32,989 nucleotides of DNA from the IMG/VR virus record IMGVR_UViG_3300025677_000016, one strand, 5' to 3'. This document shows positions 1,705 through 32,989 of this stretch, one piece after another. Origin of the DNA: a virus. Numbering within the stretch: the stretch's first letter is position 1; each line of letters begins with the position of its first letter. The notes beneath the pieces are model-generated. The model had not been told where the DNA came from and made no database searches. It saw only the letters and a program-made list of their open reading frames with translations. Position numbers and translations under genes: made by a program.

Positions 1705-2501
1705 CCATTGTGCCGAGTGGAGCAATCGAGTTACCCACTCTATCCGTAACGCCGGAGTTTCTCGCGCGGCGGGAGGATGCGATTGCGTCCGCCGCGCTAA
1801 TCGCCCGGGTATCTTCACCCGATGAAAACAATCGCGCTGTCGAGGTGCAAAAGGCCCTGGTCGGTCTGGTCCGCGAAGTGGAGTCAGCGCGCAAAAAGCT
1901 CAAAGAGCCGGTGCTGGACCTGGGTCGGCAAATCGACGCTACGGCGAAAGCTGCGGTCGAGCCGATCACAGCAGCCGAACTCCCGTTGCGAAATCTCATC
2001 TCCGATTTCGCTGACTCTGAGCGCAAGCGTGCGCAAGCCGAGGCTGCGCGGATCGAGGCTGAACGGCGACAGGCCGAGGAGGCCGCGCTACAAGCCCGGC
2101 TTGCGGAAGAGAAGCGCGTGCGAGAAGAGGCCGAGGTGCGCCTACGTGCGGCCAAGGATGCGGCGGACCGAGCGCGGATAGAGGAAGAGGCTAAGGCTGC
2201 GGTCGAGCGCGCTAAAGCCGAACAGGAGCGCGCACAACGGCTCGCTGATGAACGTGCGGCGATGGACCGGCAGATGCACGCGCCTGCGGTCGCGCAGGGC
2301 CAATCGGTGCGAACGGAGTGGCAGCTTGATATCGTGGACATTTGGGCATTAGCCCGTGCTCACCCGGCTTGTGTCACAATCACACCTAGACTGTCGGAAA
2401 TCAAAGCCCTACTCGATGCGGGAGCTAAGGTGGTAGGGGTAAGTGCAAAACGAGTCACAATCGCGGGAGTCCGCACAGCAGGAAGGACGATTGACGTATA
2501 G
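1692..2501 (+). CDS. Coiled-coil protein of unknown function; its position suggests a recombination role
   Basis: Long E/R/A-rich heptad-like central region flanked by globular ends. It immediately follows and overlaps recT. Confidence 0.65.
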   Translation: MRELAIVPSGAIELPTLSVTPEFLARREDAIASAALIARVSSPDENNRAVEVQKALVGLVREVESARKKLKEPVLDLGRQIDATAKAAVEPITAAELPLRNLISDFADSERKRAQAEAARIEAERRQAEEAALQARLAEEKRVREEAEVRLRAAKDAADRARIEEEAKAAVERAKAEQERAQRLADERAAMDRQMHAPAVAQGQSVRTEWQLDIVDIWALARAHPACVTITPRLSEIKALLDAGAKVVGVSAKRVTIAGVRTAGRTIDV

Positions 2502-2591
2502 GCGGCCCTGGCGAGCCACGGGTCAAACCGTGTGCGACGGGGACTCTCGCGGCGGGCAACTCCACTCTGTCACTCCTCCCGGTGAGTACCA

Positions 2592-2954
2592 ATGGAAACA
2601 GACGCGAAAGCCGGGTGGAGTGACGCAAAAAGGAACACTAACTATCTGCAAGCACAGACTATCGAAAACGAAGTCACCAAGGAGAAGACCGAGCAATACG
2701 TCATTCCTGCGGCAGCATGTCACGAAGACATTGCCGTGGGCTTTGAGTCCAAGATGCGACGCTACGCAAACCGCAGCGTCAGCTTGCGAAACGCTACGCT
2801 GTGCAACCCGACGGCGGAGCTGGAGGACGCTACCCGCAAGAAGATCGAGGGTAGGCTGGAAATCGCGGCAACGCGGCTTGTGCTACTCGCACGGGAGCGC
2901 AGCCTGGGTGGTTGGGTGAAGAAACACGCCCCAAAGCTCCTTGAAAAACGATAG
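2592..2954 (+). CDS. Hypothetical protein, 120 aa
   Basis: Track ORF. Its codon pattern looks more coding-like than the overlapping 2443-2919 frame. Confidence 0.5.
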   Translation: METDAKAGWSDAKRNTNYLQAQTIENEVTKEKTEQYVIPAAACHEDIAVGFESKMRRYANRSVSLRNATLCNPTAELEDATRKKIEGRLEIAATRLVLLARERSLGGWVKKHAPKLLEKR

Positions 2955-2961
2955 GACAATT

Positions 2962-3061
2962 TGCGCGGCTCGGCGCGGCTCGGCGCGGCCCGGCTTGGCA
3001 GGGCGGGGCGCGGCCAGGCATGGCTGGGCATGGCGCGGCGTGGCTGGGCAAGGCGAGGCTC
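2962..3061. repeat. GGCNN pentanucleotide array, block 1 (about 19-20 units)
   Basis: GGC at 2967+5k up to 3057, with a degenerate TGCGC at 2962. Read directly. Confidence 0.9.
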
Positions 3062-3097
3062 CACACACTGCCCATTCGCGAGAGTGGGCAGAAGTTG

Positions 3098-3160
3098 GGC
3101 CTGGCGAGGCGCGGCAAGGCGAGGCTCGGCGCGGCGAGGCGTGGCAAGGCAGGGCGAGGC
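3098..3160. repeat. GGCNN pentanucleotide array, block 2 (13 units)
   Basis: GGC at 3098+5k up to 3158. It is separated from block 1 by a 36-nt non-repeat spacer (3062-3097). Confidence 0.9.
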
Positions 3161-3230
3161 TAACTCACCGGGGCGAGTGGTTGCCCCGGCAGCTTTCGGT
3201 TGACGGTCAACAAACAACAAAAGGAACACG

Positions 3231-3809
3231 ATGAAGACGATGAAGGTACGATGGACGGGGATTCGACCGCTGGTGATGCACAACGGGTTGATGGCAGACC
3301 CGACAAACAAGTTCACGCGGGCGATCAAAGAGATTGTCCGCAAGGGCAGCAAGAAGCTGACGGACTCGGACTATGAGATGCGCGACCGGCTCGAATGGGA
3401 AGCGGGCCTTTACTGGGACGAGGACCTGGGCGCGGTTATCCCGAGTGACAACATCGAGCGGTGCGTGCAACTGGGGGCGCAGAAATCGCGGATCGGGAAG
3501 GACGTGCAAGCCGCCGTCCTTTGCTCCGAGCCAGTCGTCAAGCTCATCTATGACGGACCGCGCAAGAAGGAAGCCATGTTCAACGACCCGCGATTCACAC
3601 TGCGGAAAGGAGTCAGCATTCAAAAGTCCCGGCTGATCCGAATTCGCCCCATGTTCCCCACCGGCTGGAGCATCGAATTTACCCTGGAGTACGATGACAG
3701 CATCGTGAACGAGCGCGGGCTACACAAGGCTATGGTGGATGCCGGGGCGCTGATCGGGCTCGGGGATCACCGCCCGAAGTTCGGCCGATTTACCGTGGAG
3801 GCGCTGTGA
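3231..3809 (+). CDS. Conserved-looking phage protein of unknown function, 192 aa
   Basis: Track ORF. ATG is preceded by aacaaaaggaaca, and the stop overlaps the next start (GTGA). Confidence 0.7.
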   Translation: MKTMKVRWTGIRPLVMHNGLMADPTNKFTRAIKEIVRKGSKKLTDSDYEMRDRLEWEAGLYWDEDLGAVIPSDNIERCVQLGAQKSRIGKDVQAAVLCSEPVVKLIYDGPRKKEAMFNDPRFTLRKGVSIQKSRLIRIRPMFPTGWSIEFTLEYDDSIVNERGLHKAMVDAGALIGLGDHRPKFGRFTVEAL

Positions 3810-4204
3810 CCCCAACACAACGCACAATGGATGAACTCCGCAAGCGCGGCTACACCGTGGGCCGAGTGGAGCAATGGAGGCCTGGACCAAATGGCGGCTT
3901 CCGGCAGGACTTATTCGGGATCATCGACCTGCTTGCTATCTCGGGCGACCTAACGATCGGAGTGCAAGTCTGCGGCACAGCCTGGAGCGCGCACGTCAAG
4001 AAGTTGCTCGGGCGCGATCCTGAATATCCAGAAGCAGAGCAGGCTGTCCGACGGTGGCTCGAAAGCCCACACCGGTACATGGAGTTGTGGGGCTGGAGGC
4101 CGCTCAAATACGGCGAGCGCAGAATCCACCGCCTGCGGCGCGGCATGATCTACATACGCTATGACGGCGCGCCTATCGAGTTCGAGGAGGTTGAGAGCGC
4201 ATGA
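3806..4204 (+). CDS. PD-(D/E)xK nuclease, Holliday-junction-resolvase (Hjc)-like
   Basis: RKRGY...DLFGIIDLLAI...IGVQVC resembles the D...(D/E)xK core of archaeal-type resolvases. It sits in the recombination module. Confidence 0.5.
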   Translation: MTPTQRTMDELRKRGYTVGRVEQWRPGPNGGFRQDLFGIIDLLAISGDLTIGVQVCGTAWSAHVKKLLGRDPEYPEAEQAVRRWLESPHRYMELWGWRPLKYGERRIHRLRRGMIYIRYDGAPIEFEEVESA

Positions 4205-6595: not shown

Positions 6596-7270
6596 ATGAA
6601 AAAGACGTGCCAGGAATGCGGGAAAGAGTTCGAGGCGGTGATGATCACTCTCATTGGCCGGGAGTATTGCTTCGAGAAATATTGCCCGGCGTGCAAGCCG
6701 ATCAGGGAGCAACAAGAGCGGGACATGGCTGCTATCCGGCAAGAGCAGGCTCGAACCGAAGAGTTCAATCGCGCCTGCCCACCGCTCTACCGAGAGACCG
6801 ACCCACGCAAGCTCCCTTGCAATCCCGACATCACAAAGCTGGTGCTTGGCTGGACATACGGCGCGAAAGGCCTGGTGTTGCACGGAGCCACCGGGCGCGG
6901 CAAAACACGGCTCGCATACCTGCTCGTCAAGCGGCTGGTACTCGAGGGCCGCACCGTGAGCGCATTCGACCCGCTGTCATTCGCGCACCGCGTTGGTGAG
7001 ACGTTTGGGGAATACCAAGGCGAGCGATTCATCCGCGAGCAACAGAAGGTCGACGTGCTGATGCTCGATGACCTGGGCAAGGCAAAGCTAACAGAGCGTG
7101 CTGAGGCTGAGTTGTTCGGTCTGGTCGAGCATAGGATCGCTCACTTCAAGCCGCTGATCGTGACTACTAACTTCGTTGGGGATAAGCTAAGCGATAAGCT
7201 GAGCGAGGATCGAGCTACGCCGCTGGTCAGGAGACTGAGGGAGTTCAACGAGTGTGTGTGTGTGAGGTAA
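6596..7270 (+). CDS. DnaC/IstB-like AAA+ helicase loader with an N-terminal Cys-rich (zinc-ribbon-like) segment
   Basis: Walker A HGATGRGKT, Walker B VLMLDDLG, and CxxC...CxxC at the N-terminus. Confidence 0.8.
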   Translation: MKKTCQECGKEFEAVMITLIGREYCFEKYCPACKPIREQQERDMAAIRQEQARTEEFNRACPPLYRETDPRKLPCNPDITKLVLGWTYGAKGLVLHGATGRGKTRLAYLLVKRLVLEGRTVSAFDPLSFAHRVGETFGEYQGERFIREQQKVDVLMLDDLGKAKLTERAEAELFGLVEHRIAHFKPLIVTTNFVGDKLSDKLSEDRATPLVRRLREFNECVCVR

Positions 7271-7347
7271 TTGTGCTCGGAGGACATCGAGGGCACAGTT
7301 GTGCTGCCCGGGGCTGTGCTCAAAAGGCTTATGGAGGTGCTTCCGCT

Positions 7348-8103
7348 ATGCTGAGACCAAACGAGAATAAAAACGCGCCACAGGGCAACGTGGCGCAAGG
7401 GCGGGGCGGTGTGGTGGGGCGCAAGACGGGCGGCCGATGGTCTGAACTGCCAATCAGCGATGAAGAACTTGTGCGCAGATACCAAGCCGGGGCTGGAGTT
7501 AAGGCCCTCGCCAAACAACTCGGGACAAATCACGTCAAAATCCTTCGGCGAATCAGGGCAACATGCGGTGTGATTAAGGGGAGGCAATTCGTAAAGGAAA
7601 AGTTTGCCGGAAAGACGGTTGCAGCGTGGCAATACGACGCTTGGAAAGGTGAATGGAAAGCCATGTCGCAATACGACGAGACAAAGCACTGGGGCGGGTT
7701 GTGGGTGCGCAACCGAACTACGAATAGGGAATACAGACGCGCAATGGATGCCAAGCACAGGCGCGACAAGAGCAATTACTACATCTCCAAGCTGCTTAGG
7801 TGTAGAGTGCGGTCTGTGCTTAAAGGTGTGAAGAAATCAAAGCCAACACTCACCATGCTTGGCTGCACGCTTGAGCAGTTCAGACAGCACATGCAGGCAC
7901 AGTTCAAGCGAGGCATGGCATGGAATAACATGGGTAGTCATTGGCACATTGACCACATAATACCATGCTCTGCATTCGACCTAAGCAAGCCAGAGCAACA
8001 GGCGATATGCTTTCACTATACTAACATGCAACCGCTAGAGGCTAAAAGGAACTTGGCCAAGCGTGCAAAAGTCATAGATGCGCAATACAAGCTGAGGATC
8101 TAA
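7348..8103 (+). CDS. HNH endonuclease with an N-terminal HTH-like segment
   Basis: WHIDHIIPCSAFDL...HYTNMQPLEAKRNLAK is an HNH motif. ATG 7348 lies 8 nt after GGAGG. The gene is located just upstream of the terminase genes. Confidence 0.8.
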   Translation: MLRPNENKNAPQGNVAQGRGGVVGRKTGGRWSELPISDEELVRRYQAGAGVKALAKQLGTNHVKILRRIRATCGVIKGRQFVKEKFAGKTVAAWQYDAWKGEWKAMSQYDETKHWGGLWVRNRTTNREYRRAMDAKHRRDKSNYYISKLLRCRVRSVLKGVKKSKPTLTMLGCTLEQFRQHMQAQFKRGMAWNNMGSHWHIDHIIPCSAFDLSKPEQQAICFHYTNMQPLEAKRNLAKRAKVIDAQYKLRI

Positions 8104-9123: not shown

Positions 9124-10985
9124 CTCTCAAGACCTTCGCGCGGGAAGTCTTCACAGCTCAGAGCAAGCAGGCTGTTTCCGCTTGGAGCGAGGGGGCGCTT
9201 GTCATTCCTCCCGGCAAGTCCGAGTCCCCCGGCCCGTTATCGTGGCTTGGCCGGGACTACATGCGGGAACCTTTGGATGCGTGGAATGCGCCGGGCGTCA
9301 CAGACCTTGTGTTGTGCTTCGGATCGCAGACGGGCAAGTCAACTCTCATGATCGCGGGCGTGGCTTACGTGCTTGTCAACTCTCCGTCTGGCTTGCTATG
9401 GGTGCACCCAACGCAACAACTTGCGCGGAGCTTCTCGACCACGCGGTGGTTGCCTGTTGTCAAGGTATCACCCAGCCTGACCACATTGATGCCGACGGGA
9501 TCAGCGAAACGCACGGGGATGACACTGCTCCAGCAAGAGTTTGGTCCAAGCCTTGTGAACTTCGTTGGGTCAAACTCGCCTGCCAACCTTGCCAGCCGCC
9601 CCGCGCGCGTTGTGATCATGGATGAGGTTGACAAATTCCCGAAGGAAGTCCGATCCGAAGCAGACGCTGTGAACCTCGCAGAGCAGAGGACCAAGAGCTT
9701 TACAAACCCGCTCAGGGTGAAAGCTTCGACGCCCACGGAAGAGGACGGGCTCATCTGGCAAGAGTTCATGAAGGGCGATCAGCGCCGCTATCAGATGCCA
9801 TGCCCGCTCTGCCGCAAGCCAGTGGTGTTCGCATGGTCAGAGCAATTCTGCGTGATGCCGCGGCTCGGCTGTGAAGCGTGGGTGGCATGGGACTCGACCG
9901 CGCGGAGGGCAGACGGAACATGGGACCTGGATGCGGTGCATAAGAGCGCCCGGGCCGTGTGCCCACATTGCGGCGGGCACATTGCAGACAGCGCGAAGAC
10001 TCGCATGATCCGGGAAGGGAGGTGGGTGCCCACGGCCACGGCTACCACAACCCGCGGCTTTCGTTCCTATCACTTACCCAGCCTGTACGCCGTGGGGACG
10101 CAGACAAGCTTCGGTGCGCTTGCTATCGCGTTCCTCCGTGCGAAGAAGTCATTCCTTGGGTTGCGCGGCTTCGTGAACGGAGCACTGTCCGAGCCGTTCA
10201 TGCGGCAGGACATGCGCGGTCAGAGGATCGAGGTTGTTGTTAGCAAGCCCGAGGCGAAGGCTGAGGCTAGCAAGATCATGACGGTTGACTGTCAGCATGG
10301 CTCGCCGCACTTCTGGTACGTTGTTAGGACCTGGGAACACTCGCAGACTAGCACGGTGTCGACCGCGGTGAAGGCTGGGCACGCTGAGACATGGGAAGAC
10401 TTACACAAGATCAAGACCGACGAGAATGTTCCTGATGCTGGCGTCATGGTTGACTCAGGCTGGGGTGCGCGCTCGGACGCAGAAGTGTATCGGCGTTGCG
10501 CTGCTTACTCAGAGTTCACTTTTCTTGAGGAACGCGGCAAACACTTCGGGACTGGATGGTGCCCGGCAAAGGGAATGCCGCACCGGAAGACCTGGAAACA
10601 GCCGGACACGCAAGCACAAGCCCCGTACTTCACAAGGTTCATCGACCCGTTTGCTGGAACGTCCGATGCCGGCAAGGCTGAGATTGTCCTTTTCGAATTC
10701 GCATCGGACTGGTTCAAGGACTTGCTCGCAGTGTTGCGCGACCCAGAGCAAGCGAAAGACTTGTCGATAACATGGGCTGTGGCCAAGGACGTAGCTACTG
10801 AGGAGTATTGGCAACACTTGGATGCTGAGTACCTAGACCAACAGCCGAGCAAAAAGACAGGCAAGACAACTCGGACGTGGACGAAGCGCAGTCAGAGATG
10901 GCCGAACCACTTGCTTGACTGCGAGGTAATGCAACTCGCATTTGCAATGTGGTGTGGCCTGATGCCAACACTGCCGACGGAATAA
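9120..10985 (+). CDS. terL: Terminase large subunit, lambda GpA family
   Basis: FGSQTGKS P-loop, VIMDEVD Walker B, CPLC...CPHCGG zinc motif and C-terminal NHLLDCEVMQLA, in GpA-like order. Confidence 0.9.
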   Translation: MTLKTFAREVFTAQSKQAVSAWSEGALVIPPGKSESPGPLSWLGRDYMREPLDAWNAPGVTDLVLCFGSQTGKSTLMIAGVAYVLVNSPSGLLWVHPTQQLARSFSTTRWLPVVKVSPSLTTLMPTGSAKRTGMTLLQQEFGPSLVNFVGSNSPANLASRPARVVIMDEVDKFPKEVRSEADAVNLAEQRTKSFTNPLRVKASTPTEEDGLIWQEFMKGDQRRYQMPCPLCRKPVVFAWSEQFCVMPRLGCEAWVAWDSTARRADGTWDLDAVHKSARAVCPHCGGHIADSAKTRMIREGRWVPTATATTTRGFRSYHLPSLYAVGTQTSFGALAIAFLRAKKSFLGLRGFVNGALSEPFMRQDMRGQRIEVVVSKPEAKAEASKIMTVDCQHGSPHFWYVVRTWEHSQTSTVSTAVKAGHAETWEDLHKIKTDENVPDAGVMVDSGWGARSDAEVYRRCAAYSEFTFLEERGKHFGTGWCPAKGMPHRKTWKQPDTQAQAPYFTRFIDPFAGTSDAGKAEIVLFEFASDWFKDLLAVLRDPEQAKDLSITWAVAKDVATEEYWQHLDAEYLDQQPSKKTGKTTRTWTKRSQRWPNHLLDCEVMQLAFAMWCGLMPTLPTE

Positions 10986-25491: not shown

Positions 25492-25614
25492 GTTTTCGGA
25501 ACAGACCACAAGCCTAATCAGTAGCCGCACGTCTAAGACTTCTATGCCACCCCAACCGAAAAAGGTTTTCGGAACAGACCCAAGACTAATCAGTAGCCGC
25601 ACGTCTAAGACTTC
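25492..25614 (+). repeat. Direct repeat of about 50 nt (25492-25542 and 25565-25614) with a 1-nt indel, at the TMP / next-gene junction
   Basis: gttttcggaacagacc(a)caag(c/a)ctaatcagtagccgcacgtctaagacttc, read directly. Confidence 0.9.
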
Positions 25615-26374
25615 GAGCGGAACTTCAACGATAAAGGTTTATGACGGGTCACTATCTGGAGTCAACACAGTCATTGCCGGCTTGTCTTCATGGGATCAAT
25701 GGGACCGTGACGACAGCAACGCTCCGCTCTATCGGTTGACGGTGCGGCAGCCTTTGGACGCTGAGGGTGCGGAATCGCTTGAGTGGTCTTGGGAAATCGC
25801 GCCGACCGAAGACAGGCGCGACATGAAGGAGCATCCCGTTGTGCTTAACATTGTCAATGCTCTGAATGCTGTGTCAGCAGACAGCGGCACAGATGCGCTC
25901 CGTCAAGTAATCCAGGCCGTTGACGATGCGAATGAACTCTTGTTTGTGGCTGGAGTTCTTCCGACCGAAGCAACGCGAGTATTCGAGAGACTCTATAACG
26001 TTATGCTCCGTGGCCAGACACACTTCGCATGGCCACACTACACACTGCGTTTCAACGCTACCGTAGGCGCTGCGTTCTCTGGACAAATCAACGACGATGG
26101 CGCTTATCGTGTGTACTCTGCCGGGGACATTATCTCGCAGTTTGGAAACTTCCCGATGTACGCTAGGACGCAAGCCCGAGTGCTTGCGCTCCAAGCATTC
26201 GACCCTGCGACTCTGTTCGCTTCCGCAGGCGTCACAGGCCTTTCTGGTTACACTTGGGGTTGGCTCAAAAAGCCGATGAGTGAAACGCAACTAAGGGACT
26301 TCAAGATTCAACTCTCTACAGAGTGGGATCTTGACTTGTGGGAAACTGAGCTACCCACTTACATCAGGCTATGA
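25544..26374 (+). CDS. Distal tail protein candidate (by position), 276 aa
   Basis: First gene after the TMP. The start is uncertain because of the upstream repeat. Confidence 0.45.
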   Translation: MPPQPKKVFGTDPRLISSRTSKTSSGTSTIKVYDGSLSGVNTVIAGLSSWDQWDRDDSNAPLYRLTVRQPLDAEGAESLEWSWEIAPTEDRRDMKEHPVVLNIVNALNAVSADSGTDALRQVIQAVDDANELLFVAGVLPTEATRVFERLYNVMLRGQTHFAWPHYTLRFNATVGAAFSGQINDDGAYRVYSAGDIISQFGNFPMYARTQARVLALQAFDPATLFASAGVTGLSGYTWGWLKKPMSETQLRDFKIQLSTEWDLDLWETELPTYIRL

Positions 26375-32590: not shown

Positions 32591-32848
32591 GTGAAAGCGC
32601 ACAACGTAACAGGTAAGTGCATTGTAGCCGCTGATCGCGGCTTCGTGTGGGTTGGAGACATTGAGAGGAGCGGGGACTGCTTGCTGATCCACAATTCCAA
32701 AAACATCCGGAGGTGGGGAACAACTCGCGGCATTGGTGAGCTAGCGAATGGGCCAACACCATCTACCGTGGTCGACGATCAGGGTGAGGTAGTAGTTCCC
32801 TGGCACGCCGTAATCCATATCACCTTATGCAAAGCGAACTCATGGTGA
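32591..32848 (+). CDS. Conserved-looking small phage protein, 85 aa (..DRGFVWVGD...IRRWGTTRGIGELANGP..)
   Basis: GTG start directly after aacaaaaggaacaaa. Confidence 0.6.
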   Translation: MKAHNVTGKCIVAADRGFVWVGDIERSGDCLLIHNSKNIRRWGTTRGIGELANGPTPSTVVDDQGEVVVPWHAVIHITLCKANSW

Positions 32849-32989
32849 CTATTGATGGGTCCGGGTCCGGGTACGGGTACGGGGACGGGGACGGGTCCGG
32901 GTACGGGTACGGGTACGGGTACGGGGACGGGGACGGGTCCGGGTACGGGTACGGGGACGGGTCCGGGGACGGGTACGGGTCCGGGTCCG
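32842..32989 (+). CDS. 5' part of a wrapped Gly-rich dipeptide-repeat ORF (frame A: MVTIDGSGSGYGYGDGDGSGYGY...). An alternative frame B starts at ATG 32855 and reads (G-T/P)n.
   Basis: ATG 32842 overlaps the TGA of the upstream gene and follows an A-rich aaagcgaac motif. The 6-nt repeat keeps the frame open. The coding status itself is uncertain. Confidence 0.35.
   Translation, partial: MVTIDGSGSGYGYGDGDGSGYGYGYGYGDGDGSGYGYGDGSGDGYGSGS
32857..32989 (+). repeat. Hexanucleotide G3N3 tandem array, right part. The last 50 nt (32940-32989) are identical to nt 1-50.
   Basis: Character-by-character comparison of the two window ends. This is a direct terminal overlap of the kind seen for circular or terminally redundant assemblies. 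Confidence 0.95.

Follow-up and report, generated by a model that had tools for sequence, protein, structure and literature searches.

Background

VIPR (Viral Interference Programmable Repeat) systems are encoded by phages and combine a minimal RAMP protein, Vipr, with guide RNAs (vrRNAs) made up of 9-16 tandem YNNGG (GGY/NN) units and a structured 3' tail, and type II VIPR has been characterised in the Escherichia phage SUSP1 and in a Pseudomonas fulva prophage (bioRxiv 10.64898/2026.04.26.720920 and 10.64898/2026.04.26.720927; PDB 36pp). According to the same preprints each unit is bound by one protomer, which sequesters the GGY and leaves the NN exposed to read double-stranded DNA (dsDNA) with every third base of the target being skipped, and the R-loop triplex represses transcription, the natural targets being competing phages, prophages and satellites. 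The published Vipr complex pairs with single-stranded RNA (ssRNA) in vitro, its assembly then being incomplete (bioRxiv 10.64898/2026.04.26.720927), and nucleases are carried by some VIPR types (bioRxiv 10.64898/2026.04.26.720920). Here we describe a locus in the IMG/VR virus record IMGVR_UViG_3300025677_000016, a stretch of 32,989 nt which was analysed at its full length and is referred to as the window, where positions 2967-3230 on the + strand very probably encode two vrRNAs, with the partner gene vipr directly following at 3231-3809.

Most of the features which define VIPR and which are open to in silico testing are present in this locus: we observed the repeat motif, its strand-specific linkage to a gene for a Vipr homologue, a predicted RAMP fold for that homologue, hypervariability of the NN dinucleotides, structured tails, and no self-target. 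Non-contiguous RNA-guided DNA recognition has already been published in 2026, and the window locus confirms and extends it.

Two GGCNN arrays directly upstream of vipr

The flank, the two arrays with their tails, and the gene following them are laid out as below.

2955-2966, + strand: short, conserved 5' flank GACAATTTGCGC, from the stop codon of the upstream open reading frame (ORF; TAG at 2952-2954) to the first GGC
2967-3059, + strand: vrRNA1 repeat tract, 19 GGC units with a period of 5
3060-3097, + strand: vrRNA1 3' tail, with a CCACACA motif, a 10-bp hairpin (3068-3091) and then AAGTTG
3098-3160, + strand: vrRNA2 repeat tract, 13 GGC units with a period of 5, ending 70 nt before the vipr ATG
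3161-3230, + strand: vrRNA2 3' tail and vipr 5' region, with TAACTCAC and a hairpin at 3168-3189 (CCGGGGC...GCCCCGG)
3231-3809, + strand: vipr, encoding a 192-aa RAMP (Cas7-like) protein which is predicted to bind the arrays

In array 1 the GGC triplets start at 2967, 2972 and so on until 3057, giving 19 units in succession with 0 mismatches on the + strand, and in array 2 they start at 3098, 3103 and so on until 3158, giving 13 units in succession in a phase shifted by +1 relative to array 1, with the sequence from 3060 to 3097 between the arrays being non-periodic. The GGC is intact in all units of both arrays (32/32), yet the dinucleotides between them vary, with 12 kinds in array 1 (18 internal NN: tc gc tc gc cc tt ag gg gc ca at tg at gc gt tg aa ga) and 8 kinds in array 2 (12 internal NN: ct ga gc aa ga tc gc ga gt aa ag ga). 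An earlier, sequence-only reading of this DNA had reported the coordinates of these GGCNN arrays, their 19 + 13 units, the shifted phase and the variable NN, and all of this was confirmed base for base. The pattern (GGCNN)x9GGC matched the window at 14 overlapping positions, all on the + strand and all within the two arrays, and had 0 matches in 100 dinucleotide-preserving shuffles of the window; a relaxed period-5 scan for GGY (at least 5 of 8 units) on both strands of the window found nothing beyond the two arrays.

Several ORFs cross the array in different frames, both on the + strand (2941-3234, 2961-3203 and 3020-3163) and on the - strand (2762-3352, 2830-3147 and 2883-3068), which fits with them being by-products of a repeat that is G+C-rich and free of stop codons. 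These ORFs are what speaks for the array being a slippage-prone microsatellite or a low-complexity coding repeat without a specific function, together with the annotation of such ORFs elsewhere (a 118-aa ORF called across an array in the sister locus L121, and gene 40 in the GenBank record of Gordonia phage Trine, which is annotated straight over the array) and with the number of units differing between relatives. We consider that explanation extremely unlikely, since the 5-nt period rotates through all three reading frames and hence is not protein-coding, as had been argued from the sequence, and since an intact GGC in every unit combined with diverse NN is not expected from slippage of one unit.

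CRISPR arrays consist of identical direct repeats of ~23-50 nt and unique spacers of similar length, usually accompanied by cas genes. A CRISPR array was rejected here, as Tandem Repeats Finder and the repeat pattern gave 5-nt units only, and as there are no cas genes except for the lone RAMP homologue. A reading as G-quadruplex, (G2N3)n, was dropped as well, since it leaves the invariant C and the linked RAMP gene unexplained. Searching the whole window against Rfam at gathering thresholds gave 0 matches, and the hits from a permissive Rfam scan of 2800-3350, being osmY in 3161-3230 (25 bits versus a cutoff of 46.9), IRES_Bag1 and eiav_FSE, were taken as chance. There was also no match when region 2400-3900 was compared by blastn with GenBank phages.

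The vipr gene product

In BLASTP the protein encoded by 3231-3809 shares 34% identity with SUSP1 Vipr (E=1e-39), and the family profile matched a single PDB entry, 36pp (36pp_D, 'SUSP1 Vipr protein', E=1.4e-37), with residues 1-191 aligned to residues 1-189. In the AlphaFold2 (AF2) model (mean pLDDT 90, pTM 0.83) the protein is predicted to have the minimal RAMP fold, a single RRM core with a glycine-rich loop and a thumb hairpin; the C-terminal glycine-rich loop reads GLGDHRPKFGRF, and a long beta-hairpin is found at 123-142. When this model was compared with the PDB using Foldseek, the top matches were Csm3/Cas7 RAMPs (6ifn_F, 7uzw_A and 9g9f_D, probability 1.0), with 40 matches at E<=1e-3. 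With the contact residues taken from bioRxiv 10.64898/2026.04.26.720927, four of the five residues holding the GGY in SUSP1 are aligned and identical in the window protein (H17, R138 as R139, D177 as D179, and R179 as R181), and the DNA-backbone contacts K33 and K88 (K90 in the window) are kept.

Outside the VIPR work this protein corresponds to phrog_4652 of 'unknown function' (E=1e-49), and it had no match in Pfam, NCBIfam or PADLOC. A search of 5.8 billion proteins returned 474 Vipr homologues, the family comprises 3,324 representatives at 50% identity, and in the 130 GenBank phage records with homologues these are all annotated as 'hypothetical protein' and are all <60% identical to the window Vipr. 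The sequence-only reading had listed a protein-coating site and a link to gene 3231 among its options, which went in the right direction, as the predicted Vipr encoded by 3231-3809 would coat the transcript of the array.

Association of arrays and vipr in other viral contigs

A scan of related genomes for GGCNN periodicity had been suggested along with the first description of the arrays. Scanning the viral contigs of IMG/VR with nothing but the DNA pattern (GGCNN)x9GGC, we obtained at least 120 matching contigs, with a GC content ranging from 0.39 to 0.76; all counts in this section are for the 120 matches listed. Using an iterated profile, a Vipr ORF was found in 88 of these 120 loci, with many of the remaining loci being cut at the array, and when 14 early-region ORFs of the window were compared with the 120 loci by tblastn, only 3231-3809 recurred. 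The arrays are confined to one strand in every locus, often with several arrays per locus and with perfect GGC runs of up to 29 units, and the Vipr ORF is on the same strand as the array in 88/89 cases, at a median distance of 33 nt to the nearest array. The converse is seen as well, with arrays adjoining vipr in all loci fetched by identity to the window Vipr or to a 75%-identical relative (9/9). As the linkage is found both when starting from the pattern and when starting from the protein, array and Vipr form a conserved two-part module, and clustering of neighbouring genes in the 88 loci did not reveal a second gene broadly linked to vipr. The same signature in at least 120 unrelated viral contigs of such different GC content, always beside the same protein family, is a further point against a microsatellite.

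With regard to the layout, arrays are located only downstream of vipr in 53 of 83 loci, only upstream in 11, and on both sides in 19. The predominance of downstream arrays is at odds with the suggestion that the array is a regulatory 5' leader of gene 3231, while a recombination hotspot for the RecT module, likewise suggested from the sequence, is unsupported, the array being linked to the vipr gene instead.

Iterons and centromeres are conserved over the whole unit, function independently of the strand, and have a cognate Rep, ParR or ParB and a partition NTPase nearby. A site of this type had been raised for the arrays by analogy with plasmids, whether as a parC-type centromere or as an iteron-based origin, with dsDNA repeats to which an early phage protein would bind in partition or replication initiation, and it is suggested by the two repeat blocks around a short unique spacer and by an early region with RecT, an exonuclease and a DnaC-like loader. 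We regard it as very unlikely, since the motif keeps to one strand and has the orientation of one particular gene in 88/89 cases, which is not required of a site in duplex DNA, since only 3/5 bases are conserved, and since 2-4 arrays of 11-22 units with differing NN vary freely beside identical genes (see below). The partner is moreover an RNA-binding RAMP and not ParR, ParB or Rep; the proposal itself had noted that no ParA/ParM-like partner was visible, and indeed there is no ParA, ParM, ParR or other Par or Rep family in the neighbouring ORFs. Finally, the 'spacer' turned out to be a conserved, covarying RNA hairpin, as described with the tails.

Other architectures were seen in further loci. 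In L005 (IMGVR_UViG_3300033480_000011, 1995-2351) tracts of 6-11 units are connected through a 7-nt GTTCA(N)G linker which stays constant, without a hairpin tail, and these may be the 'staggered' arrays mentioned in the preprint. The nearest cultured relative is Gordonia phage Trine (L138, MH271318.1), in which gene 41 encodes a Vipr with 39.6% identity, and in which the region downstream of vipr (2079-2349) contains a perfect 12-unit GGC tract at 2128-2185, followed by a degenerate GGC-rich stretch. Interspersed with the Trine arrays is a tRNA-like element, present three times and having an acceptor stem and a T-arm (CGGGGTTCGACTCCCCG), for which the best Rfam likeness is a sub-threshold mascRNA (22 bits); this element may be a processing signal for RNase P/Z, a layout absent from the main text of the preprint. 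T-arm-like tails were also found in L011 and L015, and ARAGORN predicted no tRNA in the window or in the loci with T-arm-like tails.

Guide variation in loci with an identical Vipr

The identical 192-aa Vipr is encoded in six further metagenomic contexts (L121-L126), making seven with the window. L126 repeats the window, with array 1 being identical, and the other contexts contain 2-4 arrays in the same place, giving 13 distinct guides of 11-22 units across the seven contexts. The 5' flank, which precedes the first array in all sister loci (6/6, L121-L126), every GGC and three tail types are constant in these contexts, and the NN strings differ. Hypervariable NN on a fixed scaffold are what characterises a programmable guide RNA, and iterons and centromere repeats show the opposite pattern. 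In 9/13 guides the tail is preceded by GA as the last NN, and this terminal dinucleotide probably belongs to the conserved handle.

There are seven shared blocks of at least 4 units (4-7) between the guides, versus 0.38 expected from shuffles. The first 5 units of window vrRNA2 are those of guide 4 in L121 and its units 4-10, a 7-unit block, are found in guide 1 of L124, while window vrRNA1 and guide 2 of L122 have two 4-unit blocks in common with a one-unit indel between them. Such a mosaic of shared 4-7-unit blocks on an identical protein suggests recombination and indels in register with the GGC scaffold, and we put forward the turnover of guides in this clade by such recombination as a tentative explanation, with a chance of being right that is a little under even. 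If true, and taken together with the guides of 19-22 units and the runs of up to 29 elsewhere, VIPR repertoires would diversify by shuffling of units and by indels, without Cas1-like adaptation, and the length of the filament would not be restricted to 9-16 protomers. The origin of new guides is not discussed in bioRxiv 10.64898/2026.04.26.720920 or 10.64898/2026.04.26.720927, and neither are mosaic guides on an identical protein background.

One of the sister loci, L123, has an extra insertion of ~50 nt between two vrRNAs (2746-2815), which includes a perfect palindrome GTGTGTCCCCGGGGACACAC, has a duplicated CGTGGTCT on its flanks, and could be a terminator or a recombination scar.

Structured 3' tails

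The three conserved tail types in the identical-Vipr clade are TACACACAC-hairpin-GCAGCGTGGTCT (type 1), TCCACACA-hairpin-AAGTTG (type 2, as after array 1 of the window), and the terminal TAACTCAC-hairpin (type 3, as after array 2 of the window). In the vrRNA1 tail the hairpin arms CTGCCCATTC and GAGTGGGCAG enclose the loop GCGA, and the fold has a predicted energy of -22.8 kcal/mol (z = -3.8 against shuffles); tails of this type follow arrays in L121, L122 and L125, and a variant is present in L124. The vrRNA2 tail is predicted to fold at -25.2 kcal/mol (z = -2.1), and is followed by a small hairpin, TTGAC-G-GTCAA, at 3200-3210 and by a Shine-Dalgarno-like AGGA at 3222-3225, 5' of vipr. An outer helix taking in the last GGC was seen in single-sequence folds.

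L123 has a compensatory variant of the terminal hairpin, TGGCGC/GCGCCA instead of the CCGGGGC/GCCCCGG of the window, and when 17 tails from several clades were aligned, two-sided changes retained the pairing at 4/7 pairs of the tail hairpin. What had been described as a unique spacer between the arrays is non-periodic as stated, and represents the tail of vrRNA1 with a conserved, covarying RNA hairpin at 3068-3091. The sequence-only reading was right in taking the ORFs over the array for by-products and in placing the constraint on the nucleic acid.

Proposed mechanism and targets of the guides

From homology to the SUSP1 and P. fulva systems we infer expression, processing, assembly of the ribonucleoprotein, DNA targeting and silencing. 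The array would be transcribed, probably within the early operon, and be cut into two separate vrRNAs; co-transcription with the early operon is suggested by the absence of a sigma-70-like promoter beside the array and by the distance of only 12 nt from the upstream stop codon to the array, which leaves no room there for a separate promoter. By analogy with the published complexes, each pentanucleotide unit would be bound by one Vipr protomer, with the GGC sequestered and the NN exposed, in a helical filament expected to contain 19 protomers for the one guide and 13 for the other. The exposed NN would pair with dsDNA reading NNxNNx..., with one skipped base per unit, so that targets of ~57 bp for vrRNA1 and ~39 bp for vrRNA2 may be expected, and the R-loop triplex would keep a competitor, be it a phage, a prophage or a satellite, from being transcribed.

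There are several points which weigh against assigning the locus to VIPR. A consensus scan for sigma-70-like promoters and terminators identified none adjoining the array, vrRNA1 with its 19 units is outside the 9-16 range of the two characterised clades, and no pseudoknot is established in the tails of the window, unlike what is reported for the SUSP1 clade. In the protein, the fifth GGY-holding residue of SUSP1, the stacking W178 of the G-loop, is replaced by His180, an aromatic substitution at a position which is Trp in >90% of close relatives, and SUSP1 K82 corresponds to Gln84. No recognisable vap gene was identified beside the window vipr. Decoding of the guides by the 1-nt skip rule and scanning of viral contigs, metagenomes and GTDB genomes, using exact seeds without mismatches, gave no exact match in viral contigs for the full cores or for 9-10-unit seeds of both guides, and none in metagenomes for the 9-10-unit seeds, a negative result which is weak because only exact matching was used and because the last NN 'GA', which probably belongs to the handle, formed part of the query in 7 of the 11 collection scans and over-constrained them. 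A 9-unit seed did have 8 matches in GTDB genomes, all of them chance matches on rescoring (best 26/40).

Within the window there was no self-target at a 1-nt skip, the best site having ~58% of the NN, equal to control spacings, and the VIPR systems of the preprint are likewise without a self-target (bioRxiv 2026). One fitting site was found, for a guide in a sister clade: a 9-unit guide of L128 (1488-1535), where Vipr is 75% identical, matches L071 at 10807-10829 with 16/16 NN at a 1-nt skip. This site lies inside the vipr ORF of L071 (10350-10967), in the region encoding the thumb, and the skipped base is at codon position 1 and not at the wobble position; a match like this is expected by chance at roughly 5e-4 per guide in the ~2.2 million positions compared.

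The window could also contain a genuine Vipr-vrRNA pair which acts in another way, by targeting RNA, by regulating genes of the phage itself, or by cutting together with the nuclease-like ORF downstream of vipr (3806-4204, see below). Such a mode of action would be in line with the lack of a DNA target in the collections scanned by exact seeds, the long guides of 19-22 units and the W>H and K>Q substitutions, as well as with the incompletely assembled pairing of the published complex with ssRNA in vitro (bioRxiv 10.64898/2026.04.26.720927), the nucleases in some VIPR types (bioRxiv 10.64898/2026.04.26.720920) and the weak Hjc/HincII-like fold match of the coupled ORF 3806-4204. We nevertheless judge it very unlikely, as in the window there is no self-match above background at any spacing but the trivial one, as the residues holding the GGY and contacting the DNA backbone are mostly conserved, and as the L128 guide fits a foreign phage gene by the 1-nt skip for DNA; the nuclease assignment is weak (E=0.05), and ORF 3806-4204 is not generally linked to vipr.

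Neighbouring genes and other repeats in the window

The window is the genome of a tailed phage, with genes for the small and large terminase subunits, portal, head protease and tape measure, and with all genes on the + strand; the genes for RecT, the exonuclease and the DnaC-like loader form part of its early region. It contains no CRISPR-like repeat-spacer array, and its ORFs gave no matches to cas or defence families. The ORF following vipr is as given below.

3806-4204, + strand: possible accessory (vap-like) ORF of 132 aa, overlapping the vipr stop codon by 4 nt

This ORF follows vipr in all six sister contexts (6/6), but has only 23 homologues versus the 474 of Vipr in the search of 5.8 billion proteins, and it had no family match, including in Pfam, NCBIfam and PADLOC. 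Its AF2 model (mean pLDDT 92) gave weak Foldseek matches to the Hjc resolvase (probability 0.92, E=0.05) and to HincII, and the conserved residues E22, D35, D41 and Q54 are compatible with a PD-(D/E)xK-like fold. The product may be a PD-(D/E)xK-like nuclease that belongs to the recombination module, or else a vap-like partner. Upstream of the arrays, ORF 2592-2954 had no match in Pfam, NCBIfam or PADLOC, and is not conserved next to vipr.

Elsewhere in the window there is an endonuclease VII-like ORF at 7252-8103, and a 72-nt unit is repeated 2.1 times with 85% identity at 25492-25640, either between tail genes or at their edge. A hexanucleotide array, GGG-NN-C, is present at both ends of the window, at 1-175 (~27 units) and at 32843-32989 (~22 units), and is not a vrRNA because its period is 6. 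It is in frame and coding, with an ATG at ~32843 from which MVTID and then (Gly-Ser/Tyr/Asp)n are read, and the start of the window continues this frame until a TAA at ~173-175. As one frame extends across both window ends, the contig is probably circular or terminally redundant, with one ORF of G-[YSD] dipeptide repeats over the junction.

Significance

The assignment gives a function to a stretch of DNA which gene callers turn into spurious ORFs, and to a large family of 'hypothetical proteins', including phrog_4652. By the simple (GGCNN)n pattern, VIPR loci can be picked out of viral metagenomes with high specificity, and the sister loci, in which different guide repertoires accompany one and the same protein, make up a natural series useful for studying the evolution of guides and their targets.

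Comparison with known systems

TRAP (trp RNA-binding attenuation protein) sites consist of 9-11 (G/U)AG triplets spaced 2-3 nt apart. There is a likeness with the locus described here, as a functional analogy only, in that an oligomer reads a conserved RNA triplet every ~5 nt with the spacer bases not being conserved. TRAP is however an 11-mer ring unrelated to the RAMP filament, and its spacers carry no information, whereas the NN here are the payload. TRAP-like attenuation was dropped as an explanation, as no MtrB/TRAP homologue was found in the window and as the variation resides in the spacer bases.

The Cas7/Csm3 filaments of class 1 CRISPR systems share with the locus the predicted fold, the one protomer per fixed increment of RNA and the thumb which flips bases periodically. 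They differ in that the increment is 6 nt with one base flipped, versus 5 nt with three bases sequestered, which makes the guide information non-contiguous here. When compared with class 1 CRISPR, the window is furthermore without a repeat-spacer array, Cas6, Cas5, adaptation genes and a large subunit, and protein identity is only 10-15%.

The characterised VIPR systems are the closest, albeit with several differences, among which the 19-unit guide, the upstream-only arrays and the mosaic guides of sister phages are minor. The window Vipr is only 34% identical to that of SUSP1 and has His and Gln in place of W178 and K82, the Y of the unit is always C, and the guides have 19 units in the window and up to 22 in sister loci, versus 9-16 in SUSP1 and P. 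fulva. Both window guides are upstream of vipr, the minority layout (11/83), whereas SUSP1 has one guide upstream and three downstream; the tail is a CACAC motif with a hairpin, whereas a pseudoknot is reported for the tail in the SUSP1 clade; and no vap1-like DNA-binding gene was recognised in the window, unlike in the characterised VIPR systems. Shared with these systems are a Vipr of ~190 aa with homology over its full length, a RAMP fold, a G-loop and a thumb; tandem GGY/NN guides on the same strand and adjoining vipr, with hypervariable NN on an invariant scaffold and with a structured 3' tail for each tract; and a location on a phage, without a CRISPR array or cas genes and without self-targeting.

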